A DNA stretch of 64,000 nucleotides from Nitrospirota bacterium. GTDB taxonomy: Bacteria; Nitrospinota_A; UBA7883; JACRGQ01. Every line of letters starts with the position of its first letter. The stretch's first letter is position 1. The position numbers were made by a program, and so were the translations under genes. Location: contig JAJRYD010000036.1 of NCBI GenBank assembly GCA_024275955.1, forward strand, positions 1-64,000, given 5' to 3'. The notes beneath the pieces were generated by a model. The model searched no databases. It was not told where the DNA came from and was given only the letters and a program-made list of their open reading frames with translations. This document shows positions 5,952-60,434 of this stretch, piece by piece.

Positions 5952-6243
5952 TAGCCGTCTCTCAAAAAGTTGTTTCATACTGCGAATAAAGGTTAATATC
6001 GGTTTTTAACTCTTTGGAAATCGCAAGAAGAATGAAGAAGTAACCAAAAACATAGTCATTAAACTCAAGGTTATTTGCAAGAACCTCCTCCTTAGCAAAG
6101 CGGAAAGAGGGGTCGCCCAAAGGGCGGGGGTGGTTCTTAGCCGGTAAGCCTTCCGGCATTCGACAGGCTCACGCCGCCTTCCCTTCTTAAAAAGGGAAAG
6201 GTTTTTATAATCGTTTAAACAGTAAATTTTTCAGGGACGACTA
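5952..6243 (+). repeat. Type-2 structured repeat (about 290 nt), copy A of 3
   Basis: tagccgtc.ctc.aaaaa...ttgtttcata...ctctttggaaatcgcaagaagaatgaa...ggtaagccttccggc.ttcgacaggctcacgcc...tttttcagggacgacta; imperfect terminal inverted repeat. Confidence 0.85.
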
Positions 6244-9371: not shown

Positions 9372-10145
9372 TGGAGTGCATACTAACATGGCATATTTTA
9401 AAAATGAGAAATAAAACAACGAGAATTTGTAATTATTCGGTTTTTACTACAAAAATTGTAGCTCAGGTATATCGCAGATTAATGACCAGATGCAACTCAT
9501 TGTAAAAGCACAGCTTTCTAAAGTATCTATTTTGGTATCCAATTTGCAACAACTGTAGTTACCGGCGGGTAATGTTGCCGGGGTTTGGGGGCGATGGTTC
9601 GCCCACCATAAAAGCCTGTATGCCTCCACCGCTAGGCTGATAAAGCGAACCATGGTGTCATGACTGTTTACCCCCATAAATTTTTTGACACCGTCGCCCC
9701 CATCTTTTTTAATACTCCACCCTTCGTCACCTGCTTTAAATAAATTACAAAAAACTTTATGTTAGGGCTAAAGATTTTGTGGCTACAGTCCGATAAGGCA
9801 ACTAGGAAGGTATTTTTAGGTAAATTATGATTATAGTTGATTTGAGCGGAATGGGAAACGGTATAAGACCTATGTCCAGCTCCAGCCCTATGGGATCTGC
9901 CCAAGTGGCAGGGCGGCTGGAGAAAACTGGTGCCAACGTAGCACGTTCCGGCAGGGCTGTAGAGCGTTCTGTTTCCCAGATGAAGTCGCAGTATGCGCGT
10001 CCTTCCGGCAATTCGCGGATAGATATCAAAGCCTGAGTGAATCTGGCTTACTGTTTGCTCCGCGCTTGTTCCGGCTTTTTTCCGGTTCAGACCTACGAGG
10101 GATAGTCTTTTTAAGTTTTTTAAAGTAGCCGCGCGTGTCGGCTCT

Positions 10146-12893: not shown

Positions 12894-13568
12894 CTACATT
12901 GAAAGGTACTCGTTGGTGAACTTCTGGTAATTAAGGAGGACAGACTTGGAATATTTAGGATTTAACTTTTTGCCTTTCCTTATCGCTTTGCGTACGGCGT
13001 TTGGGCCTCGGTTATAAGCTTCCAGCGCAAACTCGATATTTTCAAATTTTCCTATCAGCTTGGATAGGTAGTGGATACCAAGCGTTATGTTTACCCTGCC
13101 GTCATTAAGGCTTCCTGTCTCATAGCCGGCCAGCTTTATTTCCCGCGCAACTTCCTCGCCGGTAGGGGCCATCAACTGCATAAGGCCCCTTGCCCCTTTG
13201 TTGGAAACGGCATAGCGGGAAAAAGAGCTCTCGGTTTTTATAACTCCCATCACCAAAAGGGGGTCAAGGTTGTACGCTCTGCTTTTTTTAAGTATCAGCT
13301 TGGCAATTTCTCTGGGGCTGTGTCCGAGCCTTTTCTCAAACTTGGAAAGTAACCCTTCAATTTTCGTCAAAATTTCGGCCTCACGTTTCATTTCCCTTGT
13401 TTTGGACTTAAGGTAGATAAGCTCCGAGTCGAGCCAGAGCTTCTCTTGCTCAAAATCGAGTGCTTTCGCACGGTAGTACTCAGTCGCTTGCAGGCAGACA
13501 AAGCCTACAAGCAGGCTCAGAGACAAAAATCTATAGAAAGAGCTTTTTTTACTCATCTGTTTCTCCAT
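12894..13568 (-). CDS. Lytic transglycosylase (SLT domain) with an N-terminal membrane anchor
   Basis: ESSFSRYAVSNKGARGLMQLMAPTG is the SLT catalytic motif. Confidence 0.8.
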   Translation of the reverse strand: MEKQMSKKSSFYRFLSLSLLVGFVCLQATEYYRAKALDFEQEKLWLDSELIYLKSKTREMKREAEILTKIEGLLSKFEKRLGHSPREIAKLILKKSRAYNLDPLLVMGVIKTESSFSRYAVSNKGARGLMQLMAPTGEEVAREIKLAGYETGSLNDGRVNITLGIHYLSKLIGKFENIEFALEAYNRGPNAVRKAIRKGKKLNPKYSKSVLLNYQKFTNEYLSM

Positions 13569-13854: not shown

Positions 13855-16800
13855 ATGCTGTTAAGCTGTCCCAAGTGTCGTAGCGGCTACGAAGTTGATA
13901 GTGAGTCAATTCCTAAGGAGGGTACTTACGCCCATTGCACTTCGTGCGAGAATATATTTTTTGTAAAGCACAAAACAACCTCTGGCACTAGCGAAGATAA
14001 GCCTCCCTCCGACAAGCCCGAGCCTTCCCAAACGCTCGGCGAAGAGGGCTCTTTTCCTGATTCTCACGATACCAGCGAAGGCGAAACAATAGCAAAATCC
14101 TTAGAGTCAGATTCGGACGATGGTGACGATTCGGATATTAATGATATCTCTACTAAAGCTTTCTTTTCTGAAGATATTGAAGATGACAAAGAAGATTTTA
14201 GCAGAACTCAGTCACTCTCTGCCCAAGCGGCCGAAGAGGCTTTGGGTGAAACCGAAAAATATATACTTGGAGAGAGAGGCGGTATAGAACCTGATGAGAG
14301 CCTTCAAGACGATACGGGGCAGGAGGAAGCAGAAGTTGAGTATCTTGAGAATGATGTTCTGCTGGAAGCCGATGACGACGATATCCTCATTAGCGATGGC
14401 GGAGATGACGGGCTAGAGGTTGACAGCAGTTTAGATTTTGGCGAAGGGGTAGATGTAGTAGATGAAAATGCGGGAGACGACGATTCTATCAAACTTCTCG
14501 ATTCCCAAATTGGTGAAATAGTACCCGAGGAGGTTTGGACAAAAGATTCTGCTAAAGCCGAACCTGACGACGATGTAATCTTAGAAAACTCCGACGATAA
14601 AATAGTCGAGACCATTCTGCAGGCCGATTCGGACCAGCCGGAGCCTGCCCAAACCGGCTCAGAAGTGTCAAGCTCCTCTGAATCCTCCTCAATGAAACCT
14701 GAGGCAATAAGGGACCCAAGCGATATTGATACTCTTTTCCTTGACGTGCAGGATGCTTTTGATGACGCGGATGAGGAGAACCCGGCCGCCTTAATAGAAA
14801 ACATGGACGATGTAGATGAAACTCCTCAAGAAAGTGTTGTGGAGGAAGAAACTGTTTTGGCTATCGCCCAAACTGTAGATGAAAGCGGGACGAAACAGGC
14901 CGAAGATGAAGCAGTTTCCACAGGTGATGGTTCACCGGCAGTTGAGACTGCCGGCAATAATACCGATAGCGAAGTAGATATCGAAGATATCGGCGCTGTA
15001 GCCGCGGATATTTCGGGTGAAATCGAAGTTGAGGACGGGTCGGAGGAGCTTGACACTAACGAACTGGAGTCAATTTTTGAGAGTGTAAATAACGCCGAAC
15101 CAGAGCCTGTTCCAGACGAATTGATAGATGAAATGCTTAGCGAAGATAAACAAGGTGGAGGTCTGCTCGACGAAATACTCGACGAAGGTTCTGCCGCCGA
15201 GGAGGGTAAAACTTTTGAGGTTCCAGAGCCAATAGATGACGAGGTCGACTCCAAGCTTTTCGGCATTAAGGGTAATGAGGGTACAAGTGTTCTTCCAGAA
15301 GATGCGATCGACTCTGTTCTTCAACATGCCGGTGACGGAAAAAGTGAAGATATCGAATCTGTCTTTGAACCGGGTTCCGATGAAGATGAAGATATTACAA
15401 GCTTTCTAGATGAAACTATGTCCGGCGAAGACGACGATGCGAACTTGCTGGATAGCGACATGGAAGCTATTTTTAGTGAAGGAGAGTTAGAGGCGGCTGT
15501 GCAAAAAGATGGCGTGGAAAAACCTCAAGCACCTGAAAAGCCCAAACCGAATCTTCAAGACGGCATAGATGCTCTTTTTGAGTCAAGCGTCAGTGGGCAG
15601 GAAACCGATGCCGAAAAAGAGGAAACGGTAGGCGACTTGGAGGCTATTGTAGATGCCGGAAGCGAAAAAGCTGTCGACGCGCAAAGCGAGATAGACGCTC
15701 TTTTCGAATCTTCGGCAAAGGAAGCTGAAAAATTACCTCAAGACGATCTCGAGGCATTTATTGACTCCGAGAGCAGTCTAAGCGAATCTTCCGTAGCGGA
15801 TGAAATACTAGGCGGCAATTCAGCTAAAGAGGAGCCTGCAAAAGAAGCGTCTGGTCAGGACGATATAGACGCGATATTTTCTGCCAACGCGCCAGAGGCA
15901 GAAGCGAAAGCAGATGATGGCGGTTCAGCCTCTGGTCAGGACGATATAGACGCGATATTTTCTGCCAACGCACCGGCGACAGAAGCGAAAGCAGATGATG
16001 GCGGTTCAGCCTCTGGTCAGGACGATATAGATGCGATACTTTCTGCCAACGCACCGGCGACAGAAGCGAAAGCAGATGATGGCGGTTCAGCCTCTGGTCA
16101 GGACGATATAGATGCGATATTTTCTGCCAACGCGCCAGAGGCAGAAGCGAAAGCAGATAATAGTGGTTCAGCGTCTGGTCAGGACGATATAGATGCGATA
16201 CTTTCTGCCAACGCGCCAGAGGCAGAAGCGAAAGCAGATGATAGTGGTTCAGCGTCTGGTCAGGACGATATAGACGCGATACTTTCTGCCAACGCACCAG
16301 AGGCAGAAGCGAAAGCAGATGGTAGTGGTTCAGCGTCTGGTCAGGACGATATAGACGCGATACTTTCTGCCAACGCGCCAGAGGCAAAAGCGAAAGCAGA
16401 TGATAGTGGTTCAGCCTCTGGTCAGGACGATATAGACGCGATACTTTCTGCCAACGCGCCAGAGGCAAAAGCGAAAGCAGACGAACCGCAGGAAGAGGCT
16501 CCTGCTGGAGATGGGTTAGTCTCTCAGGGCGATCTTGATGCTCTTTTTGCATCGGATGACCCTGCAGAGGAGAGTAGCTTGGCCGAAGATACCGCTGGAG
16601 CCGATGGTGCCGATTTAACAGAATCTGTAGGAATCGACACTGGTGATGAGCTGGAGGATCTTCTTTCTGAAACAGTCGATGTAGGTGCTGATGCTGGGTT
16701 GCCTGATGATGAAGCTGGTGTGTCAGTCTCTCAGGATGATCTTGATGCCCTGTTTGAATCCGAAGGTGGCGGGGATGCCGGTTCTAGTCAATCGGAAGAT

Positions 16801-17793
16801 GATGACCTTTTTAGCGAGGATGCCCAAGGGGACGGCGATATAGAATCTCTTATAGGTTCGGAAGCCGATACGGCGGATGAAGGTTCTGGCGAGGATGAGA
16901 GCATAGGCATAGATACTTCCATGCTGGAGTCGCTCGATGATGAACTGGGGGATGAAAAAGAGGCAGAATCTTCAGATGATGTTATGTCAGAAGAAGAGGC
17001 CGCCGCTTTGGTTGATCAAGGTGAAGATGGTGATGGAGAAGCTAAAAAGATAAGCTTCGGCACTCTTTTTTCTGGAAGCAGAAAAAAGAAAGCGGTGATG
17101 GCTGGTGTCGCTCTGTTGCTGGTAGCGCTTGGCGTAACTTTTTTCTACTACAAAGATACCTTTTTGCCTTCCGATAGCGAAGATATAGTTGCTCAAACAG
17201 GTGAGATAGTCGGCACCATAATTGAGCAGCCTGCTGTAATGGACGAACCTCTAGATGAGGCGGGGGAGGCTGTTGCCGAGAAACCAGCGGAATTTGCAGA
17301 AAGCGTTGAAGACGATTTTGCGGTTGTCGATGATGATTTTGTGGCTGTCGATGACGATGTAAAAGCGGAAGCGAAAGTAGCCCCCCAAAAGGAGGCAGGA
17401 AGAACAGCTCAAAAAAATGAGCAGGCAAAAGAGACCGCTTTTGCCCAGACTGGCAAAGCAGATGATGAGACTGTAGATTTTGCGGAAGGTAAAGATGTGA
17501 AGTTTGGGATAATAGTACCTGTCGATTACAATGCTCAGGCAGTTAGAGTAATGACAGCCGATGTAATGATAACCTTTAAAAGCTCGCAGGAGCGTGTTTC
17601 TGCCGAGAAGAAAAGGTTTTTATATGAAATGGCTATTGAAGACGAAATAGAAAAGTTTTTTCTGGAAAAATTTTATGAAGATACCCATTACGTTCAGGAC
17701 AAAATAATCGCCGACCTTAACAGCAAGTTTAAAAAGCGCCGCGATATGGGGAAAATTGCTGAAATAGATATTCAGAACTTCAAGCTTCGTTAA
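13855..17793 (+). CDS. 1312-aa hyper-acidic protein. It has an N-terminal MJ0042/AgmX-type zinc ribbon (CxxC-x19-CxxC), about 1000 aa of D/E-rich low complexity with 8x27-aa tandem repeats, one TM helix and a C-terminal globular domain
   Basis: CPKC-x19-CTSC at residues 5-31. The repeat unit is SGQDDIDAI[FL]SANAPEAEAKADDGGSA. The TM helix is VMAGVALLLVALGVTFFYY, and the C-terminal roughly 200 aa are non-acidic. Confidence 0.8.
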   Translation: MLLSCPKCRSGYEVDSESIPKEGTYAHCTSCENIFFVKHKTTSGTSEDKPPSDKPEPSQTLGEEGSFPDSHDTSEGETIAKSLESDSDDGDDSDINDISTKAFFSEDIEDDKEDFSRTQSLSAQAAEEALGETEKYILGERGGIEPDESLQDDTGQEEAEVEYLENDVLLEADDDDILISDGGDDGLEVDSSLDFGEGVDVVDENAGDDDSIKLLDSQIGEIVPEEVWTKDSAKAEPDDDVILENSDDKIVETILQADSDQPEPAQTGSEVSSSSESSSMKPEAIRDPSDIDTLFLDVQDAFDDADEENPAALIENMDDVDETPQESVVEEETVLAIAQTVDESGTKQAEDEAVSTGDGSPAVETAGNNTDSEVDIEDIGAVAADISGEIEVEDGSEELDTNELESIFESVNNAEPEPVPDELIDEMLSEDKQGGGLLDEILDEGSAAEEGKTFEVPEPIDDEVDSKLFGIKGNEGTSVLPEDAIDSVLQHAGDGKSEDIESVFEPGSDEDEDITSFLDETMSGEDDDANLLDSDMEAIFSEGELEAAVQKDGVEKPQAPEKPKPNLQDGIDALFESSVSGQETDAEKEETVGDLEAIVDAGSEKAVDAQSEIDALFESSAKEAEKLPQDDLEAFIDSESSLSESSVADEILGGNSAKEEPAKEASGQDDIDAIFSANAPEAEAKADDGGSASGQDDIDAIFSANAPATEAKADDGGSASGQDDIDAILSANAPATEAKADDGGSASGQDDIDAIFSANAPEAEAKADNSGSASGQDDIDAILSANAPEAEAKADDSGSASGQDDIDAILSANAPEAEAKADGSGSASGQDDIDAILSANAPEAKAKADDSGSASGQDDIDAILSANAPEAKAKADEPQEEAPAGDGLVSQGDLDALFASDDPAEESSLAEDTAGADGADLTESVGIDTGDELEDLLSETVDVGADAGLPDDEAGVSVSQDDLDALFESEGGGDAGSSQSEDDDLFSEDAQGDGDIESLIGSEADTADEGSGEDESIGIDTSMLESLDDELGDEKEAESSDDVMSEEEAAALVDQGEDGDGEAKKISFGTLFSGSRKKKAVMAGVALLLVALGVTFFYYKDTFLPSDSEDIVAQTGEIVGTIIEQPAVMDEPLDEAGEAVAEKPAEFAESVEDDFAVVDDDFVAVDDDVKAEAKVAPQKEAGRTAQKNEQAKETAFAQTGKADDETVDFAEGKDVKFGIIVPVDYNAQAVRVMTADVMITFKSSQERVSAEKKRFLYEMAIEDEIEKFFLEKFYEDTHYVQDKIIADLNSKFKKRRDMGKIAEIDIQNFKLR
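15850..16497 (+). repeat. Eight near-identical 81-nt tandem repeats inside the CDS
   Basis: Period of 81 nt (tctggtcaggacgatatagacgcgata...), varying at only a few positions. Confidence 0.9.
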
Positions 17794-17826
17794 TTCTTTA
17801 GAAATTTTCATACACTTTTTTGTATC

Positions 17827-18257
17827 TAGCCGTCCCTGAAAAAATTGTTTCATGCCTCAGACAAAGTTTAATATCGGTCTTAAACTCTTTGGAAATCGCA
17901 AGAAAAATGAAAAAGTAATCAAAAACATAGTTATTAAACTCAAGGTTATTTATAAAAATCTCCTCCTTAGCGAAGCGGAAGGAGGGGGAACTCGAAGGGC
18001 GGGGGGTGCTTCTTAGTCAGGTAAGCCTTCCGGCGTTCGACAGGCTCACGCCGTCTTCCCTTCTTAAAAAGGGAAAGATTTTTATAATCGCTTAAACAAT
18101 AAAGGGGCTGTTGCCGAATGGCATAAATTCGATTTTTCCACAAATCGCCAATCGCTAAAACCTCTCTTTTAAAGAAGTCAGAAAATAAACTTTTCTTTAA
18201 AACACTTAAAAACTCTTTTGGAAACAGTCCCATAAACAGCTTTTTCAGGGACGACTA
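17827..18257 (+). repeat. Type-2 structured repeat, copy B, carrying a nested type-1 element
   Basis: Termini are tagccgtccctgaaaaaa ... tttttcagggacgacta. The interior is about 90% identical to copy A. Confidence 0.85.
18104..18233 (-). repeat. Type-1 MITE-like repeat, copy 4 of 5, inserted inside type-2 copy B in inverted orientation
   Basis: The reverse complement gives gggactgtttccaaaagagttttt...ggcaacagcccc. Confidence 0.8.
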
Positions 18258-18354
18258 TTTAAGATTAAGTTCTTGGATTTCAGTTTCCATACACTTTTTT
18301 CTACCTAAGATTAAGTTCTTGAACTTTTGCGGCTTTGATGGGAGTATCTTATGA

Positions 18355-19020
18355 ATGCCGAAAATAATGATCGTTGATGATGACCCAAACATAGCATTAC
18401 TGCTGGAGCTTACCCTTAAAAAGGATTCTGGGTTTGAAGTGGTCAAGTTCATAAACGGTCAGGACGCTTTGGACAACATAGAAAAAGAGAAGCCAGATCT
18501 CATTTTACTTGACGTGATGATGCCGGGCTTAGACGGCTACGAAGTTTGTCGGCGTATTAAATCTTCAGAGAAGACTAGATATGTATCTGTCATAATTCTT
18601 TCCGCCAAAAGGGAGCTGGAAGACAAAATTAAAGGAATGAGCATCGGAGCCGATGATTACATAGTAAAACCGTTTAACCCTGAGGAATTGCTTGTAAGGG
18701 TGTATGTTCAGCTTCGGATGAGAAAGCTGGAAGTGGAGCTGGTCGACAAGAAAAAACTGGAAACCGTTCTTGCTATGTCTGTAACGATGCAACACGAAAT
18801 AAACAATCCGCTGGCTGGAATACAAGGCAATGCTGACCTGCTGAGAGATTGGCGCGACATGGAGGAAAGTGAAGTGGATGATCTGGTGAATATAATCCGT
18901 GAACAGACAAAAAGGATCAATGTGATAATGAAGGAGATGTCATCTGCTACAAAAGTGGCGGAAACGTCGTACCTCGGCTCTACCAAAATGATAAATTTAA
19001 AAAAATTAAAAGATGATTAG
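18355..19020 (+). CDS. Orphan receiver (REC) domain fused to a HisKA/DHp phosphoacceptor domain with no HATPase domain
   Basis: Canonical REC (IMIVDDD...LLDVMMPGLDG...ILSAK...IVKPF) followed by an H-box (MQHEINNPLAGIQGNADLL). The protein ends 60 aa later with no ATP-binding N/G boxes. Confidence 0.75.
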   Translation: MPKIMIVDDDPNIALLLELTLKKDSGFEVVKFINGQDALDNIEKEKPDLILLDVMMPGLDGYEVCRRIKSSEKTRYVSVIILSAKRELEDKIKGMSIGADDYIVKPFNPEELLVRVYVQLRMRKLEVELVDKKKLETVLAMSVTMQHEINNPLAGIQGNADLLRDWRDMEESEVDDLVNIIREQTKRINVIMKEMSSATKVAETSYLGSTKMINLKKLKDD

Positions 19021-19051
19021 GAAGAATAACCGGAGGTGGCGAGCCTGTAAA

Positions 19052-19345
19052 TAGTCGAAGCTGAGAAAGTTGTTTCATACTGCAAATAAAGCTTAATAGT
19101 CGGTTTTTAACTCTTTGGAAATCGCAAGAAGAATGAAAAAGTAAGCAAAAACATGGTTATTAAACTCAAGGTTATTTACAAAAATCCCCTTGCATAGCAT
19201 AAGGAGGGGCCACCCGAAGGGTGGGGGGGCTTCTTAGTCAGGTAAGCCTTCCGGCGTTCGACAGGCCCACGCCGTCTTCCCTTTTTAAAAAGGGAAAGGT
19301 TTTTATAATTGTTTAAACAATAAACAGCTTTTTCAGGGACAACTA
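19052..19345 (+). repeat. Type-2 structured repeat, copy C
   Basis: Same architecture as copies A and B, with compensatory substitutions in two hairpins. Confidence 0.85.
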
Positions 19346-19570
19346 AATAATTCCGTGTAACTGTCCGTTCCATTTTTTTCGATACCATATCGGCACACTC
19401 AATCATAAACCTGTTGAGCGCAGGTTTTTAGTTAGCCCTGCAATCAAATTGTGTAACTGTTTTTTTGCGGTAGCCGCTATCCGCGCTTGTAGCTAGCACC
19501 CTGCCGTAACGGTTAAGCTGTTTTTACACTATCCACCTTCCCAAAAAAATGAGCCGAAATCTGCAAACGC

Positions 19571-21875: not shown

Positions 21876-22253
21876 TAACGCCTGTGGGATGCCTTTTTTG
21901 AGCGCCACCTTTTTTTCTGTTTTTTCTTTTTAGTATTGCTTGCCATAATTCCTCCGGTTAATCTCTTTCATAAATCAGTACGTTGCCAACGACTGTCAAG
22001 TTTAAAGTCTTTCGAGATTTTGTGCAAGGCTTCCGCGTATCCCATTTACAGAACAACCGAACGAAACCACGTTTGCGAAAATCTCTTTAGCAACTTGTCT
22101 CTTGGTATCGAGAGGGAAGTATATCATCAGATTCAGGCGGTAAACTAGGTCAAAATCGCAAATCTTCCTATGTTTTTTAAATCTCTGTGAGGTTTATCTT
22201 TTTAAATATTAGTAGGAAAGCATTGAGCTGTTAACTTTAAAGTCGAAGCTGAA

Positions 22254-22295
22254 GGTTTTAACAAGCTTAATAGTCAACATTGTGGACGAATAAGC
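22254..22295 (+). repeat. Partial 5' end of a type-2 repeat
   Basis: agtcgaagctga...gtt..aagcttaatagtc matches the start of copy C. Confidence 0.5.
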
Positions 22296-22371
22296 TGAAA
22301 TTATAGCTGGCGGTAGATTTTTTAAGCCTAAACCTGCGGTGTGTCAGTTTGAGTTCCAGCGGCTTCCCCTC

Positions 22372-22502
22372 TTTTCTCAAAAGAGGGGACTTAAAGGGGT
22401 GTCGCCCCTTTTTAAGGGTAACCGTTCCGTCCAGCACTAGCGGGGGACAGCTCCCATCGCATTTCGCAAAGGTAAGAGAAAGATTACTGTAATTTTCAAG
22501 CG
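22372..22502 (+). repeat. Type-3 repeat, copy 2 of 2, preceded by two GC-rich hairpins
   Basis: Hairpins cccctcttttctcaaaagagggg and aggggtgtcgcccct, then the conserved ccgtcc...gcggggga...tcgcaaagg...actgtaatttt block. Confidence 0.6.
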
Positions 22503-22752
22503 GAGACACTACCCCTAGGTTACAGGTCTTTAGCCGTGAAGAATTTTCTTTTACAACCTTCCGGCATCTTCGTGGATGCTGTACCGATGATAGAGCCTTC
22601 GGTCGCCATTTTTAACTTGCAAGACCGATATTATATACAGCTTCTTATCCGTTTTTGAGCATAGGCGACGCAGGCTGTTTCTAAAAATATCACCCGGCTT
22701 CGTTTTTTTCTCATGCTGTTGACACCACTTGCCAAATCGGTAGAATGTAGAA

Positions 22753-23235
22753 ATGTTTGAAAAGACGATAATAAAACTTGAGGCCGAGCTGAAAGAGCTT
22801 GATCGACAGCTAAGGGTAGAGATTCCCAAAGAGATAGGTACGGCGGCCGCTTTGGGCGATTTGAGCGAGAACGCGGAGTATCACGCCGCCAAAGAGAGGA
22901 AACGGAACACCGAGGGAAGGATATCCAAGCTTCAGGGCAGGATTCGCGACCTTAAGAGCATAGACCTAAGCAAGGTTTCAAAAACAGGCGTAGGGCTTGG
23001 GAGCATAGTTACACTGGAGGATGTCAACAGCGGGGCCGAGGTTACATACGAGCTTGTGATGGCCGATCAGGTCGATATCGACTCTGGCAGGATATCTCTT
23101 CAAGCGCCGATCGGCAGGGCGTTGATGGGCAAAGTAGAGGATGACGATGTGCTGGTCAACCTTCCTGCCGGAAAAAAGGAATACACCATAAATAAAGTTG
23201 TCACGCTACATGAGCGCGGCGATATTGACGAGTAG
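22753..23235 (+). CDS. greA: Transcription elongation factor GreA
   Basis: GDLSENAEYHAAKE motif plus a C-terminal FKBP-like domain. Confidence 0.8.
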   Translation: MFEKTIIKLEAELKELDRQLRVEIPKEIGTAAALGDLSENAEYHAAKERKRNTEGRISKLQGRIRDLKSIDLSKVSKTGVGLGSIVTLEDVNSGAEVTYELVMADQVDIDSGRISLQAPIGRALMGKVEDDDVLVNLPAGKKEYTINKVVTLHERGDIDE

Positions 23236-29824: not shown

Positions 29825-30595
29825 TTATGTTTCCTTTTTTGTCGGGGGTAGAGCGTCGGCAATCTTTTTGAAAGGTTCAAAAAGATCCATCGGTATCGGG
29901 AAGATGGTGGTGCTGTTATTTTCTGCCGCTATCTCTTTAAGGGTTTGAAGGTACCTGAGCTGAAGCGATACCGGATGTTTGCCCATCATCTGCGCCGCTT
30001 CGAGAAGCTTTACCGAAGCTTGCAGTTCGCCCTCTGCGTTTATTATCTTTGCGCGTCTTTCACGCTCCGCTTCGGCCTGCTTTGCCATCGCCCGTTTCAT
30101 TTCGTCCGGCAGGTCGACATGCTTGATAGCTACCGATGTTACTTTTATTCCCCATGGATCTGTGTGTCTATCTAGAACTGCCTGAATAAGAGGGTTTATT
30201 TTTTCCTGCTCGGCCAGCAGTTCGTCCAGCTCCGATTTGCCGAGTATCTCCCGCAAGGTAGTTTGTGCCATCAGCGAAGTGTTGTAGTGATAACCCTCGA
30301 CTTTTATTATAGCTTTCTCGGCCTCCATCACCCGGTACATAACTACGGCGTTAACCGTAATGGAGACATTGTCTTTGGTTATTATATCTTGCGGTGGAAC
30401 ATCAAGAGCTACGATTCTTATGTCTACCCTGTCCATCGTTTGCAGAAACGGTATTACCAGCTTAATCCCTTCGGAATAGGTGGTGGTGTACTTGCCGAGA
30501 GTAAAAATAACTCCCCTCTCATACTGCTTTATAATTTTGACGGAACTGGCAATGAACATCAGAATTAATACTGACACACCGAATAATGAGAACAT
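29825..30595 (-). CDS. SPFH/Band-7 (stomatin/HflC-like) membrane protein
   Basis: N-terminal TM and the SPFH core ([12 protein letters not shown]...). Confidence 0.8.
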
Positions 30596-34261: not shown

Positions 34262-34295
34262 CTTCAAGATGATAAACCATTTAAGCGAATAAAAA

Positions 34296-34668
34296 AACGA
34301 AGGCGGACTATAAGCCGGATTCTGTACCCTCAATGGGGCGACGGTCATCCATCTAGCCGATCCGTTGCCGGAACGGTCAAGCAACCAACCCGAAGGTAAA
34401 AGGCGAGCAACCTTCATCCCGTTTAAGGGAAACACCTTCCTATTTGGTCTTGCACCGGGCAGGGTTTACCATGCGACCCGCGTCGCCGCAGGCCCGGTGA
34501 GCTCTTACCTCACCATTTCACCCTTACCTGACAAAAAGTCAGGCGGTATATTTTCTGTGGCACTTTCCCTAGGATTACTCCCGCTCCCCGTTAAGGAGTG
34601 CCGTACTCTGCGGTGTCCGGACTTTCCTCCAGACCTTTAAAAGGCCTGGCAACCGTCCGTCCGCCCTC
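34296..34668 (-). ncRNA. rnpB: RNase P RNA (bacterial type A)
   Basis: The minus strand carries GGAGGAAAGUCCGG..., AGGGUGAAAUGGUGAGGUAAGAGCUCACC, and the 3' ACAGAAUCCGGCUUA. P1 pairs ggcggac with gtccgcc, followed by a U-run. Confidence 0.9.
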
Positions 34669-51791: not shown

Positions 51792-52517
51792 TTATGACGC
51801 GAGGCCAAGCGCCATATCTTTGCGGTGTTTTATGTACGACGCGAGCGACTCTTCTGCCGTCTCATCGAGGTGATAATGTTTTACGCCAACGATAAAAGCG
51901 CCGTCAGCTTTTCGATGAACGCTTCGCACTATGCCGGTCATTTTAAGAAGCTTGTTTTCTCCCTCCTCAACCGCCTGTATGAAGTACTCGATCTTGTCGT
52001 CCTCCCTCAGTAAATCCAAGCTGATAGCTATCGAGCAACCGTTTATGCTCAGGTTTTTTACTTTGCCTCTGCCGTAATGCTTTCCGTGCAGGATGGTATT
52101 TTCTCTCTTGTAAAGTGTGACGATGGTGTCGAGGCTGGTTTCAAACCGTTCTTCTGAGCGTTTGAGTTTTTTCTTTTCGCCTTCAGGGAAGGTTAGCAAA
52201 ATACGCGGCATTTTGGCTGTTATGATTTTTACCGGAAATTCTTTAGCCATGCCGCCGCTGGTGATAAGGCGTAGCGAAATAAAGCTGTGTCCGTGATAGA
52301 TACCAAGCAGGTTCTGGTCGATATTATTTACTTTAAAAACCACCAGCTTGCCTGCTTTTAAGCTCTCTACCTTGCCTTTATATTCCCTGTTGTTTGCCGC
52401 CAGCCGTACCTCTTTGGCAAGGCTGATGCGGTTAGCCAGTTCGACGTAGCTGGAGGTTTCTTTCGCCGGCCTTTCCTGCTTTTTTGCCAGATAATTTTCA
52501 CTCAGTTCAATCGCCAT
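51792..52517 (-). CDS. PilZ-domain (c-di-GMP-binding) protein
   Basis: The C-terminal region has a (D/N)xSxxG-like NLSINGCSI and an upstream arginine-rich motif. Confidence 0.6.
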   Translation of the reverse strand: MAIELSENYLAKKQERPAKETSSYVELANRISLAKEVRLAANNREYKGKVESLKAGKLVVFKVNNIDQNLLGIYHGHSFISLRLITSGGMAKEFPVKIITAKMPRILLTFPEGEKKKLKRSEERFETSLDTIVTLYKRENTILHGKHYGRGKVKNLSINGCSIAISLDLLREDDKIEYFIQAVEEGENKLLKMTGIVRSVHRKADGAFIVGVKHYHLDETAEESLASYIKHRKDMALGLAS

Positions 52518-58365: not shown

Positions 58366-58527
58366 TAAAGTAATTCCTCTTAAAGTCCGATTAAACAAAG
58401 GCGACAGTATAGCCTAATTAGCTCTGCAGTCTGCCTGATATCTCCAGATATGGCGATATTAGTCGCACTTGTATATTTGTGCCTGTATAAATATACTATA
58501 ACCAGAGATGATGAAAGGTATCGTAAC

Positions 58528-58860
58528 ATGCTGAATGTAAGTGTCCAAACAGTTTTGAGTATGAGTAACGCCGCGGAGCGTGTTCAGGCTGTTGCTCAGT
58601 CTGGCTCTACCCTTGCTTCCGAGCAGGCGAAAGAACTTTTGGAAAAACAGCACGAGTTGCGCAAGGAAAAGGTTTTGGAAACTCAAGATATCGAGGAGGC
58701 CAAAATCCGTGAGGAAGACCAGCGTAAAAAGGACCAACAGAAACGCGAAGACACTTCTGAGCAAAAGGAACGGGAAGATGGTGACCCATCTGTTGTTGCC
58801 GAGGCCTCTGCTTCGGTGGGACAGCTTGAGAGTGGTCAGCTTCTCAATATAAAGGTCTAG
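58528..58860 (+). CDS. Hypothetical coiled-coil, highly charged protein (first gene of a 4-gene flagellar-type operon)
   Basis: A GAAAGG SD lies 8 nt upstream of ATG 58528. K/E-rich predicted helix. Confidence 0.4.
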   Translation: MLNVSVQTVLSMSNAAERVQAVAQSGSTLASEQAKELLEKQHELRKEKVLETQDIEEAKIREEDQRKKDQQKREDTSEQKEREDGDPSVVAEASASVGQLESGQLLNIKV

Positions 58861-58884: not shown

Positions 58885-59346
58885 ATGGGTGGGTGGCTGG
58901 TATTTCAGTTAGCGGTTGACCTGCTCATTTTCTTTGTCCTTGTTTTTCTTATTGTCAAAGGTGTAGCTAAAGATAAGCCGGAAGCGAAAGATATCGGTTT
59001 GATGCTGGACGAAATTAAAAAGGCAACCGAAGAAAACCGGAAACTGGCATCCAAAATAGAAATCGACTTGAAAGAGGCCGGCAACCTTATCGCCGTACAA
59101 GAAGCTGTCCGCAGAAAAAAAGCTACAGCTTCTATTAAAAGACCGGAACAGCTAGACCTCAGCGAGAAGCCGGTTTCGGCAGAGGCTGAACCGCTTCCTC
59201 CTATAAGCGTCTTGAGCGACAGAAAACGGAACGTTAAAACGCTCTATAGGCAAGGGGTTTCAAAAGACGGCATAAGCGAACGGCTTTCTATCCCTCTGCC
59301 TGAAGTAGATCTTATCGTCGCGATGATTGGCGACGAAGATAAATGA
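58885..59346 (+). CDS. Membrane-anchored protein with a C-terminal HTH-like motif (DUF2802-like architecture?)
   Basis: N-terminal TM (LIFFVLVFLIV). The C-terminal LYRQGVSKDGISERLSIPLPEVDLIV resembles a sigma-70 region-4-type HTH. Confidence 0.45.
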   Translation: MGGWLVFQLAVDLLIFFVLVFLIVKGVAKDKPEAKDIGLMLDEIKKATEENRKLASKIEIDLKEAGNLIAVQEAVRRKKATASIKRPEQLDLSEKPVSAEAEPLPPISVLSDRKRNVKTLYRQGVSKDGISERLSIPLPEVDLIVAMIGDEDK

Positions 59347-60434
59347 TCAACCTTTCCGAAGTAGCTCCTTCCATTTTTAAGGCTATCCTCAAGGGAGAAA
59401 CAGGTAAAGTTGAAAGCCGGTTTTCCACTGGCGAGCTAGTACAGGGAAAAGTGATAAAAGCGCTTGGACGGGATGGAGCGGTTGTAAGGCTAAGAGGGCT
59501 TGATCTTATAGCCGCGACAGCAAAACCTTTAGTAAACGGGCAGTCTATATTGGTAAAGGTGGAGCAGGTAAAGCCGCAGTTCCAAGTATCACTTTTGCTC
59601 AACGAAACAGCGGCGCAGGAAAAGAAGGCGGCAATGCTTAGGCTTTATCTTCCGCAGGCTATGCCAGCCGGAAAAATGACAGGAGAGTTGGCAAAACTAG
59701 TAGCTTTACTTCCAAAGTCTCTCTTAAAAGGAACCGAGCTGGATGAAATACTCTCTAAACTTTTGCGTAAAAGCGGGACAGAAAGGGAGGCAGGAAAAAG
59801 CGGCGCCGGAAAAGGCTACGCGAAAGCGGAACAGAGCAACCTGTTAAAGCTTCTTGGTTTTTCGCACGAGTCGGATATAGCAAAAGGTAAGCCGACGGCG
59901 AACCTTAAAAGCGCACTGCTCCTGTTGAAGCAAAATATGGAAAAAATGGGAGAGAAAACCTTCTCTAAATATAGCGAACCGATGGAAAAGGTTACCCGCG
60001 CAATTCAGAATATAGAACTAAAGCAACTGATGAACATTGATGAAAAACTTAAGAACTGGGAGATCCCTTTCTGGAACGGAGAAAAAACAGCTACGGCGAG
60101 GCTGTACGTTAGGCGTGAAAAAAAACAAGGCAAAGAGAAAAATGAAAAAGAGGGCGGGACAGCTGTTTCGCTTATGGTCGAGATGAGCAGGCTCGGCCCT
60201 GTCCGTGTCGAAGCGCGGGTAAAAGGCAAAAAGATTACGGGAGATATCTACATTGGCGATGGAGAAAAGGCCGAGAAGGTTCAGGAGAGTTTGCCGTTGC
60301 TTATTCAAGGCTTGAAAAAGGCAGGTTTTACAGCCAAGTTTCAGGTGCAGACGGCAAAAAGCTATTTTCTTACCGAAAAACTGGAAAAAGAAAGCCCTCC
60401 AGCCGTAAAGGGGCTGTTAAACATAAAGGCTTAA
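59343..60434 (+). CDS. FliK-like hook-length-control-type protein (C-terminal Flg_hook-like domain)
   Basis: The C-terminal 120 aa (ARLYV...VSLMVEMSRLGPVRVEARVKGKKITGDIYIGDGEKAEKVQESLPLLIQGLKKAGF) follow the FliK C-terminal pattern. A 4-nt overlap with the upstream gene. Confidence 0.55.
   Translation: MINLSEVAPSIFKAILKGETGKVESRFSTGELVQGKVIKALGRDGAVVRLRGLDLIAATAKPLVNGQSILVKVEQVKPQFQVSLLLNETAAQEKKAAMLRLYLPQAMPAGKMTGELAKLVALLPKSLLKGTELDEILSKLLRKSGTEREAGKSGAGKGYAKAEQSNLLKLLGFSHESDIAKGKPTANLKSALLLLKQNMEKMGEKTFSKYSEPMEKVTRAIQNIELKQLMNIDEKLKNWEIPFWNGEKTATARLYVRREKKQGKEKNEKEGGTAVSLMVEMSRLGPVRVEARVKGKKITGDIYIGDGEKAEKVQESLPLLIQGLKKAGFTAKFQVQTAKSYFLTEKLEKESPPAVKGLLNIKA

Follow-up and report, generated by a model that had tools for sequence, protein, structure and literature searches.

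A giant acidic single-pass protein of the Nitrospinota that combines a zinc ribbon, arrays of FliM/CheZ-like peptides and a predicted FliL/SPFH-like domain

We analysed a stretch of 64,000 nucleotides (nt) of contig JAJRYD010000036.1 (assembly GCA_024275955.1, a genome of the Nitrospinota lineage; this whole stretch is called the window below), and in particular the open reading frame (ORF) at positions 13855 to 17793, encoding a very acidic protein of 1312 residues. The protein combines an N-terminal MJ0042-type zinc ribbon, an acidic tail with many copies of a short peptide, a single transmembrane (TM) helix and a C-terminal domain with the predicted fold of FliL/SPFH proteins. As judged from its sequence, the short peptide closely resembles the peptides by which FliM and CheZ dock phosphorylated CheY (CheY~P). 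We tentatively interpret the protein as a Nitrospinota-specific single-pass scaffold, a giant paralogue or local form of FliL, the tail of which may dock CheY~P (or the ATPase FlhG) multivalently. The separate modules (zinc ribbon, FliL/SPFH domain and EIDAL-type peptide) are known and their combination is new; we found no description of a zinc-ribbon FliL or of a multi-copy EIDAL-type array in the literature searched.

Architecture of the protein

The preliminary description of this DNA (made from the letters alone) proved right on most of the anatomy. The ORF is one intact open frame with an ATG start, and a protein identical over all 1312 residues is a representative (P0001) in a library of 1.84 billion proteins. 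The features of the gene, on the forward strand and in the numbering of the window, are the following.

13855..17793, + strand: whole ORF, 1312 residues plus stop (zinc ribbon, acidic disordered region, TM helix, acidic periplasmic linker, FliL-like domain)
13855..13962, + strand: MJ0042-type zinc ribbon, residues 1-36, CPKC-x19-CTSC, predicted cytoplasmic (PF13717, TIGR02098)
13963..17049, + strand: acidic low-complexity region, residues 37-1065, predicted cytoplasmic, about 28% Asp+Glu, with 16-17 copies of the motif S-Q-D-D-[IL]-D-A-[IL]-[LF]
15445..15708, + strand: three degenerate motif copies 5' of the array, at residues 531 (DSDMEAIF, 12.2 bits), 566 (QDGIDALF, 16.0 bits) and 608 (QSEIDALF, 21.5 bits)
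15850..16497, + strand: tandem array of eight 81-nt (27-residue) units, SGQDDIDAI[FL]SANAP plus a variable spacer, units 1-7 with 89-98% DNA identity
16519..16857, + strand: five membrane-proximal motif copies, at residues 889 (SQGDLDALF), 928 (GDELEDLL), 958 (SQDDLDALF), 977 (EDDDLF) and 991 (GDIESLI)
16903..16935, + strand: second conserved short motif in a single copy, IGIDTSMLESL (G-[IV]-D-TSM-[LF]-E), common to P0002, P0008 and L001
17086..17154, + strand: single TM helix, residues 1078-1100, at the hydropathy peak, with RKKK just before it
17155..17469, + strand: acidic linker, residues 1101-1205, predicted periplasmic, 30 Asp/Glu and 8 Lys/Arg
17470..17790, + strand: predicted periplasmic FliL/SPFH-like domain, residues 1206-1312, strand-strand-helix-helix-strand

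Aspartate accounts for 14.9% and glutamate for 13.3% of the residues, lysine and arginine together for 6.1%, and as far as residue 1200 the net charge of every block of 100 residues lies between -15 and -35. The stretch of some 1000 acidic residues seen earlier was confirmed (about 1030 residues at 28% Asp+Glu), and residues 1078-1100 are the sole hydrophobic segment, in line with the helix that had been placed at about residues 1080-1100. This segment is preceded by SGSRKKK, and by the positive-inside rule the long N-terminal part should therefore be cytoplasmic, consistent with the proposed topology of a cytoplasmic ribbon and scaffold with an extracytoplasmic C-terminal domain (N-in, C-out). 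The part behind the helix had been described as one non-acidic domain of about 200 residues; we found instead an acidic linker of about 105 residues, in which a 21-nt repeat lies at 17311-17358, followed by a folded and charge-balanced domain of 107 residues.

A repeated peptide resembling the CheY~P-docking peptides of FliM and CheZ

Among the 159 unique instances of the motif in the family to which the protein belongs (see below) the consensus is l-I-S-Q-D-D-I-D-A-L-L-a, with Gln at position -3 in 104 and Ser at position -4 in 54 of them, neither of which was required by the search pattern. This consensus matches that of FliM (L-S-Q-x-E-I-D-A-L-L) at eight of ten positions. The FliM N-terminus, with its conserved LSQXEIDALL, binds CheY~P (PMC6700473; PMC6946799), and the same FliM sequence is both required and sufficient for an interaction with FlhG, a MinD-like ATPase (bioRxiv 10.1101/2022.04.21.489128). 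As reference peptides we took those of Salmonella FliM, MGDSILSQAEIDALLNG (PDB 8umd_C), and of E. coli CheZ, ...VVASQDQVDDLLDSLGF (PDB 1kmi_Z). The best 11-mer of each on the family weight matrix was exactly the CheY-docking peptide (LSQAEIDALLN of FliM with 18.1 bits and ASQDQVDDLLD of CheZ with 17.7 bits; P about 4e-7 per site), and both lie within the range of the scores of the family itself (10th percentile 12.4, median 23.8 bits). The LD motif of paxillin scores below zero on this matrix and the C-terminal peptide of FtsZ scores -5 bits; the likeness to the FtsZ and clamp-binding peptides that had been suggested was rejected on this ground. The family motif has the core S-Q-x-x-[IV]-D-x-L-L in common with the FliM and CheZ peptides. 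These occur once per protein, whereas here there are 10-17 copies in tandem arrays on a membrane protein, many of which run on as [AS]-A-N-A-P.

The motif is strongly enriched in the acidic tail. A looser pattern was found 17 times in the cytoplasmic region, with 0.26 occurrences expected from 5000 shuffles of the same region, and 10 times (0.30 expected) when the array was collapsed to one unit. With the family weight matrix at 12 bits or more, 16 sites were found in the ORF and one elsewhere in the six frames of the window. The strict pattern D[ILV][DE]A[LI][FL], of which at least 14 copies had been reported, occurs 10 times. Copies are spaced 20-40 residues apart, and those of the membrane-proximal stretch (VSQDDLDALFES) align with their counterparts in orthologues.

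The array itself had been described as eight perfect 81-nt repeats. The number and the span were confirmed by in-frame reading (Tandem Repeats Finder reports an 81-nt unit with 7.9 copies at 15846-16481), and the units proved near-identical, not perfect: units 1-7 differ pairwise at 2-9 of the 81 nt, and unit 8 is divergent in its final 17 nt. The eight repeat peptides (for example ASGQDDIDAILSANAPEA) are all distinct, SGQDDIDAI[FL]SANAP alone being invariant. On the opposite strand each unit makes a sigma-70-like pair (TTGGCA-N16-TATCGT), eight in register at 15860-16454 (-), which are almost certainly a by-product of the repeat that inflates the counts of a promoter scan.

A predicted FliL/SPFH-like domain behind the membrane

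For the C-terminal domain an AlphaFold2 model based on an alignment of 33 family sequences reached a pLDDT of 85 and a pTM of 0.75 (pLDDT 49 from the single sequence), with the order strand-strand-helix-helix-strand. The top matches of this model in Foldseek were FliL of H. pylori, C. jejuni and Vibrio. Profile comparisons point to the same protein: FliL (PF03748) was the commonest match in a Pfam scan of the family C-terminal domains (13 of 33 at E<=10, best E 9e-8), hhalign related the family profile to an H. pylori FliL fragment with 69% probability (E 4.3e-5), and the family profile gave E-values of 0.16-0.3 with FliL from the PDB. We therefore predict a FliL/SPFH fold for the domain, without Pfam FliL sequence membership for the window protein.

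Like FliL, the protein has an N-in single TM helix followed by a strand-strand-helix-helix-strand domain of the SPFH-like type that would lie in the periplasm. It differs by the 105-residue acidic linker between helix and domain and by a tail of about 1075 residues with zinc ribbon and motif arrays, whereas the cytoplasmic tail of canonical FliL measures just a few tens of residues. Moreover, it falls short of the Pfam FliL model, and the genes of the family usually lie away from flagellar clusters. FliL, a single-pass protein, has a periplasmic domain that rings the stator units (PMC8794807, PMC8931381, PMC6426602), and paralogues of it exist, for instance MotF (PMC9541039).

The zinc ribbon and its relatives

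Direct reading confirmed the exact CxxC-x19-CxxC pattern noticed before (C5-P-K-C8, 19 residues, C28-T-S-C31). The ribbon is recognised by TIGR02098 (MJ0042_CXXC, 22.6 bits, cut-off 20.9) and by Pfam PF13717 (Zn_ribbon_4, 34.6 bits, cut-off 30.3), and with PF13719 it scores 23.1 bits, under the cut-off of 29.3. It is MJ0042 that gives the TIGR02098 model its name, not Myxococcus AgmX, which had been called its founder. The closest solved structure is a 49-residue zinc ribbon, 2nb9_A (E 4e-5 over residues 1-35), in the alignment with which F35 of the window protein pairs with W35; the ribbon of AgmX/GltJ (7zok_A) follows with an E-value of 0.28. The entry 2nb9, named 'Uncharacterized protein' in the PDB, is presumably ZitP of Caulobacter, with which its sequence fits.

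The ribbon of ZitP binds the polar organiser PopZ in Caulobacter, an interaction that is abolished by the W35I substitution (PMC5182065), and that of GltJ has two ligands, an 18-residue peptide within the GltJ linker and the helix at the C-terminus of MglB, forming an on/off switch (PMC11135422). Since ZitP binds PopZ, and GltJ its linker peptide and MglB, such a ribbon can be regarded as a protein-contact module with a lineage-dependent ligand. Both proteins resemble the window protein in having an N-terminal cytoplasmic CxxC...CxxC ribbon of about 36 residues, a disordered linker, a TM segment and a periplasmic domain. However, the linker of ZitP is short and its domain beyond the membrane is DUF3426, GltJ contains a GYF domain, FliL-like domains and EIDAL-like arrays are absent from the two proteins, and their partners (PopZ, and MglA/MglB) are lineage-specific. 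A search for DUF3426 (PF11906), which had been proposed as a check, did not find it in the ORF (Pfam, E<=1) nor in the C-terminal domain, and memberships in DUF3426, GYF, LysM and FimV families were rejected as none of them is among the Pfam and NCBIfam matches.

Distribution of the family and evolution of the arrays

The family was defined by an exhaustive phmmer search with the last 131 residues against 1.84 billion cluster representatives (E<=1e-3), which yielded 45 clusters, in all of which the match lies at the extreme C-terminus. A word-indexed search with the C-terminal 249 residues (TM helix and C-terminal domain) returned no homologues and a metagenome scan with the single C-terminal domain as query no matches; metagenome loci were retrieved with a seven-sequence alignment as query. 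Those members for which a source is named are all from Nitrospinota and are annotated just as "zinc-ribbon domain-containing protein". Among the GTDB species genomes there was a single match, in a Nitrospinota metagenome-assembled genome (MAG) whose contig ends within the acidic region. Twenty-one of the 45 representatives are N-terminally complete, and all 21 start with the zinc ribbon (both CxxC pairs kept) and carry one TM helix; the other 24 lack the N-terminus, and several of these begin within the repeat array.

The unit of the array varies in length between orthologues: 27 residues in the window, about 30 in P0002, 21 in P0003, 41 in P0014, 24 in P0015, 20 in P0031 and 31 in P0038. The core motif is the same in these arrays and the spacers are unrelated, indicating from sequence comparison that the arrays were expanded independently in different lineages. 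Two to three of the membrane-proximal copies are conserved in position among relatives. An E-x-L-F-E element comes after them, to which the closest relatives add G-[IV]-D-T-S-M-[LF]-E. As the core is kept, the spacers are unrelated and the membrane-proximal copies hold their positions, selection appears to act on the peptide and its number, not on the intervening sequence. The preliminary proposal, an acidic scaffold that presents a multivalent docking peptide, is supported by this pattern: the motif is enriched, is kept where the C-terminal domains are about 30% identical and was re-expanded with differing spacers. Most motif-bearing relatives also have a hydrophobic, possibly amphipathic stretch before the TM helix, which is not clear in the window protein.

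In the distant members P0032, P0040 and P0045, Trp-containing acidic repeats take the place of SQDDIDALL, e.g. PSWE[ED]AF.DQSEVE.GWKKAQEQDR.QEEQQLAEA and LTDEELWQQAFP, and the acidic tail thus seems to swap short motifs between lineages. With the motif-rich residues 1-209 of P0017 as query, weak matches (E>=0.1) uncovered P0050-P0056 (loci L008 and L009), proteins of unrelated architecture with similar peptide arrays, the neighbourhoods of which gave no functional clue. One group of these, from human-gut metagenomes, has a globular N-terminal domain of about 140 residues (a faint match to DUF8432) with four to five copies of GGKMSQD[DE]IEKLLA[GA], and another has LGQDDIDALLAEMNG three times and then a TM helix.

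Genomic context

The two neighbours of interest in the window are the following.

12894..13568, - strand: divergent partner gene, membrane-anchored SLT-domain lytic transglycosylase, 224 residues (PF01464, 93 bits)
18355..19020, + strand: downstream gene for a protein with REC and HisKA domains and no ATPase domain, conserved only in the closest relative (L002)

A divergent SLT gene (encoding about 220 residues) located 240-390 nt upstream was found in 10 of the 13 contexts with upstream sequence (the window, L002, L003, L004, L006, L007, L010, L011, L019 and the P0034 locus). No other neighbour is conserved in the majority of the family; in the P0019/P0033-type subfamily (L015, L017 and L018) the SLT gene was not detected. 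Its best NCBIfam match is NF047373, a flagellar assembly lytic transglycosylase (106.9 bits, against 50.9 for Slt70), a model built on Borrelia BB0259 (PMC8517470). A flagellar context was found at the metagenome locus L015, where a family member of 683 residues (Zn_ribbon_4, 38.9 bits) lies on the same strand immediately after fliK, flgD, flgE, an MptE-like/Maf gene and one gene of no assigned function. This position is that of fliL in the fla/che-type operons of Bacillus and spirochaetes. The only motif copy of this member is ILSQEEMDKLLAG.

The REC-HisKA protein is a possible partner. In L002 a cheR gene lies 3 kb away from the family gene, past the REC-HisKA gene. This methyltransferase gene stands between gatC and greA (18055-18888 of L002), where the window has about 850 nt without a long ORF (21908-22753); cheR was apparently lost or degraded there in the window genome.

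We also searched eight upstream regions for sigma-28 and sigma-54 boxes. One good sigma-28-like site was found, in L006 (TAAA-N16-CCGATAA, TAAAGTCGGATGCCAAAATATCCGATAA, at about 9944-9971, position 286 of the upstream region and about 30 nt before the start), with one mismatch to the reference pattern TAAA-N16-GCCGATAA, and none in the other seven. A sigma-28 box as a conserved feature of the family was rejected, L006 standing alone.

At L003 (1570-8311, from a Nitrospinota MAG) the genes that come after the SLT gene, on its strand, encode T2SSE, a second, small Zn_ribbon_4 protein (198 residues), a cNMP-binding protein, T2SSF and a PilS-like kinase. Near L003 there is also a lone FliN-like gene (FliMN_C), which has no EIDAL motif.

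A possible role at the flagellar motor

We propose, as a tentative mechanism, that the FliL-like domain would oligomerise in the periplasm by the stator units, near a peptidoglycan-cutting partner encoded by the SLT gene, so that many tails would hang alongside the switch ring of the rotor. The repeats would then bind CheY~P multivalently and act as a local buffer, sink or concentrator tuning the chemotaxis readout of the motor; CheY~P is our preferred ligand, and FlhG would be the second candidate for a peptide of the EIDAL type. The zinc ribbon could add a protein contact, for targeting or as an intramolecular switch like that of GltJ, and repeat copy number would be a fast-evolving tuning parameter. 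We consider an association of the family with flagella somewhat probable. That the tail serves specifically as a multivalent dock for CheY~P (or FlhG) is a more tentative proposal, which we consider less likely than not.

Several observations weigh against this interpretation. As to the peptide, the conserved Glu of FliM is an Asp in the family, and in HMMER, run with its filters off, the motif profile aligned the correct FliM and CheZ peptides with only 6-9 bits (E 12-28 at the size of the PDB). An unbiased scan of the PDB with this profile did not return FliM or CheZ; its top matches, at chance level, were a polyketide synthase docking domain, an aminotransferase and the paxillin LD motif. 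With these low scores and unrelated hits, the resemblance has to be read as the outcome of a targeted test, made post hoc on a short motif. The distant subfamilies keep ribbon, acidic tail, TM helix and FliL-like domain with one or no copy of the motif. As to the C-terminal domain, SPFH proteins (HflK, flotillin and stomatin) are close structural seconds to FliL, and the domain of the window protein has no match to the FliL models of Pfam and NCBIfam even at E<=10. The transglycosylase scores far under the whole-protein cut-off of NF047373 (234 bits), since its catalytic domain alone matches. Of about 14 contexts only L015 shows a flagellar gene cluster around the family gene, the other neighbours being housekeeping genes (glycogen phosphorylase, gatCA, obg, L21/L27 and secA), and most upstream regions have sigma-70-like TGnTATAAT boxes, not sigma-28 boxes. 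Finally, motility was never observed in cultured Nitrospina; that the Nitrospina core genome encodes flagella and chemotaxis counts in favour of the interpretation (PMC5029188).

A bolder version of the proposal, which we regard as speculative and rather doubtful, is that a stator-ring protein of the FliL type has become a sponge of high capacity, tethered to the membrane, that takes up CheY~P (or FlhG). At least 10 subunits, each with 10-17 peptides that would mimic FliM, would place more than 100 decoy docking sites at the switch ring. By this means chemotactic switching would be adjusted in its gain, adaptation or noise, or else the number of flagella would be set, and repeat copy number would tune the strength of the effect on short evolutionary timescales. 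If true, this would be a new mode of motor regulation and the first multivalent short-motif array described at the CheY-FliM interface. Should the repeats bind CheY~P or FlhG, a tethered multivalent decoy would make the effect of local response-regulator buffering on motor switching testable. It would also provide a molecular handle on the motility of the Nitrospinota, marine nitrite oxidisers of global importance for which flagella are encoded and swimming is unseen (PMC5029188). The family itself is a clean natural case of bacterial short linear motifs under copy-number selection.

Alternative explanations

The preliminary description compared the protein with the polar landmark proteins HubP and FimV in inverted topology, and as a functional analogy this is reasonable. 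HubP and FimV are likewise single-pass proteins with a large, very acidic and repeat-rich cytoplasmic region, and HubP is the organiser of FlhG/FlhF and of chemotaxis components at the flagellar pole. Their topology is opposite, with LysM at a periplasmic N-terminus and the C-terminus in the cytoplasm, their repeat motif differs, and we detected no sequence homology to the window protein (LysM and FimV models of Pfam and NCBIfam unmatched). Another highly acidic, low-complexity protein is ChePep of Helicobacter. It is soluble, has an N-terminal receiver domain and is not known to have a zinc ribbon, TM helix, FliL domain or EIDAL-like array. ChePep regulates chemotaxis at the flagellar pole, acting at the CheY/CheZ step (PMC3143842).

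The comparison with HubP leads to the best surviving alternative, which we nevertheless consider unlikely: a polar hub, in which the repeats would dock FlhG, MinD, ParA or ParC-like ATPases and the ribbon would target the pole, controlling how many flagella or other polar machines there are and where they are placed. Such a role would agree with the necessity and sufficiency of the EIDAL sequence of FliM/FliY for FlhG binding, with the requirement of HubP for the polar action of FlhG, with the composition of the acidic region and with housekeeping promoters and contexts, which suit a constitutive landmark protein. The N-terminal ParA-stimulating peptides of ParB also contain L-[DE]-A-L-[LF]. 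The nearest structure to the ribbon, if it is indeed ZitP, points the same way. The ZitP ribbon is a PopZ-binding, polar targeting module (PMC5182065). Against a hub stand the absence of LysM and of the FimV C-terminal motif, with FimV-type NCBIfam models unmatched; the conserved S-Q before the helix, which is common to CheZ, a binder of CheY and not of FlhG; the absence of ParA/MinD genes from all sampled neighbourhoods; and the FliL-like domain, which suggests a stator and not a landmark.

A somewhat less probable alternative is a non-flagellar envelope scaffold, in which a periplasmic oligomer of the SPFH type would remodel peptidoglycan together with the transglycosylase, for type IV pili or growth; the tail would be a spacer or cation-binding brush, and the likeness to FliM and CheZ a coincidence. 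The near-equal scores of HflK, flotillin and stomatin, the SLT gene as sole neighbour conserved in most of the family (10 contexts), the type IV pilus gene run headed by the SLT gene in L003 (T2SSE, T2SSF, PilS-like kinase), an M23 peptidase gene after the family gene at the P0034 locus and the sigma-70-like promoters would all fit. Left unexplained is a motif of 9-11 residues that is conserved, kept in position and re-expanded amid drifting spacers, and it has to be set against FliL coming first in three independent comparisons and the L015 member lying within a hook operon.

Less likely again is a self-associating switch or condensate scaffold, in which the repeats would bind their own zinc ribbon, within or between molecules, to give an autoinhibitory switch or a membrane-attached network. 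There is a precedent in the homologous ribbon of GltJ, which binds its own linker peptide and the MglB helix (PMC11135422); moreover, ribbon and disordered region are paired in every full-length member, and P0050-P0056 bear similar motif arrays without a flagellar domain. These last proteins count on the other side as well, having arrays and no zinc ribbon, just as distant subfamilies have the ribbon without the motif, and a ratio of one ribbon to 16 peptides suits a simple switch poorly.

The protein had initially been filed as AgmX/GltJ-like, and orthology to this component of the gliding focal adhesions of Myxococcus would be consistent with the common N-terminal MJ0042-type ribbon, disordered linker and TM segment (PMC11135422), but it is effectively refuted by the lack of GYF among the Pfam hits (E<=1), by the ribbon (which matches 2nb9 better than 7zok), by the FliL-like C-terminal domain, by the limitation of the family to Nitrospinota and by the absence of Glt, Agl and Mgl genes among the annotated neighbours in the window and the loci of relatives. 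An assembly artefact, with a wrong copy number or a broken ORF, is equally improbable: short-read MAG relatives are often cut in their arrays (L001, L013 and L014 end at contig edges, and the 24 truncated representatives were mentioned above), but the eight units are all distinct, the frame is consistent, the identical protein is in the public library and P0002, the closest relative, shows this architecture too, with arrays of its own on a 197-kb contig.

Other features of the window

On both sides of the REC-HisKA gene we found a repeated element of about 300-440 nt (17814-18270 and 19046-19350, with blocks 74-94% identical). The first copy has terminal inverted repeats of 37 nt (17814-17850 and 18234-18270), and the word at the end of the element (AAACAGCTTTTTCAGGGAC) occurs four times in the window, once at 5957. 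The element, which has no Rfam match, resembles a miniature inverted-repeat transposable element, and it accounts for the gap of 560 nt after the giant ORF, which is 103 nt in L002.

Further away, an ORF of 363 residues at 59343-60434 (+), beside dnaN, scores at the threshold of the Pfam FliK/Flg_hook model (30.2 bits, threshold 29.8). It is a lone FliK-like C-terminal domain with no flagellar cluster around it, and two ORFs that could not be annotated lie upstream (58450-58860 and 58885-59346). A canonical SPFH/Band_7 protein is encoded at 29825-30595 (-) and a PilZ-domain protein at 51792-52517 (-), neither with a link that we could see to the scaffold. Of the Rfam families, bacterial RNase P RNA class A alone exceeds its gathering score in the window, at 34295-34668 (-), with 319.5 bits.

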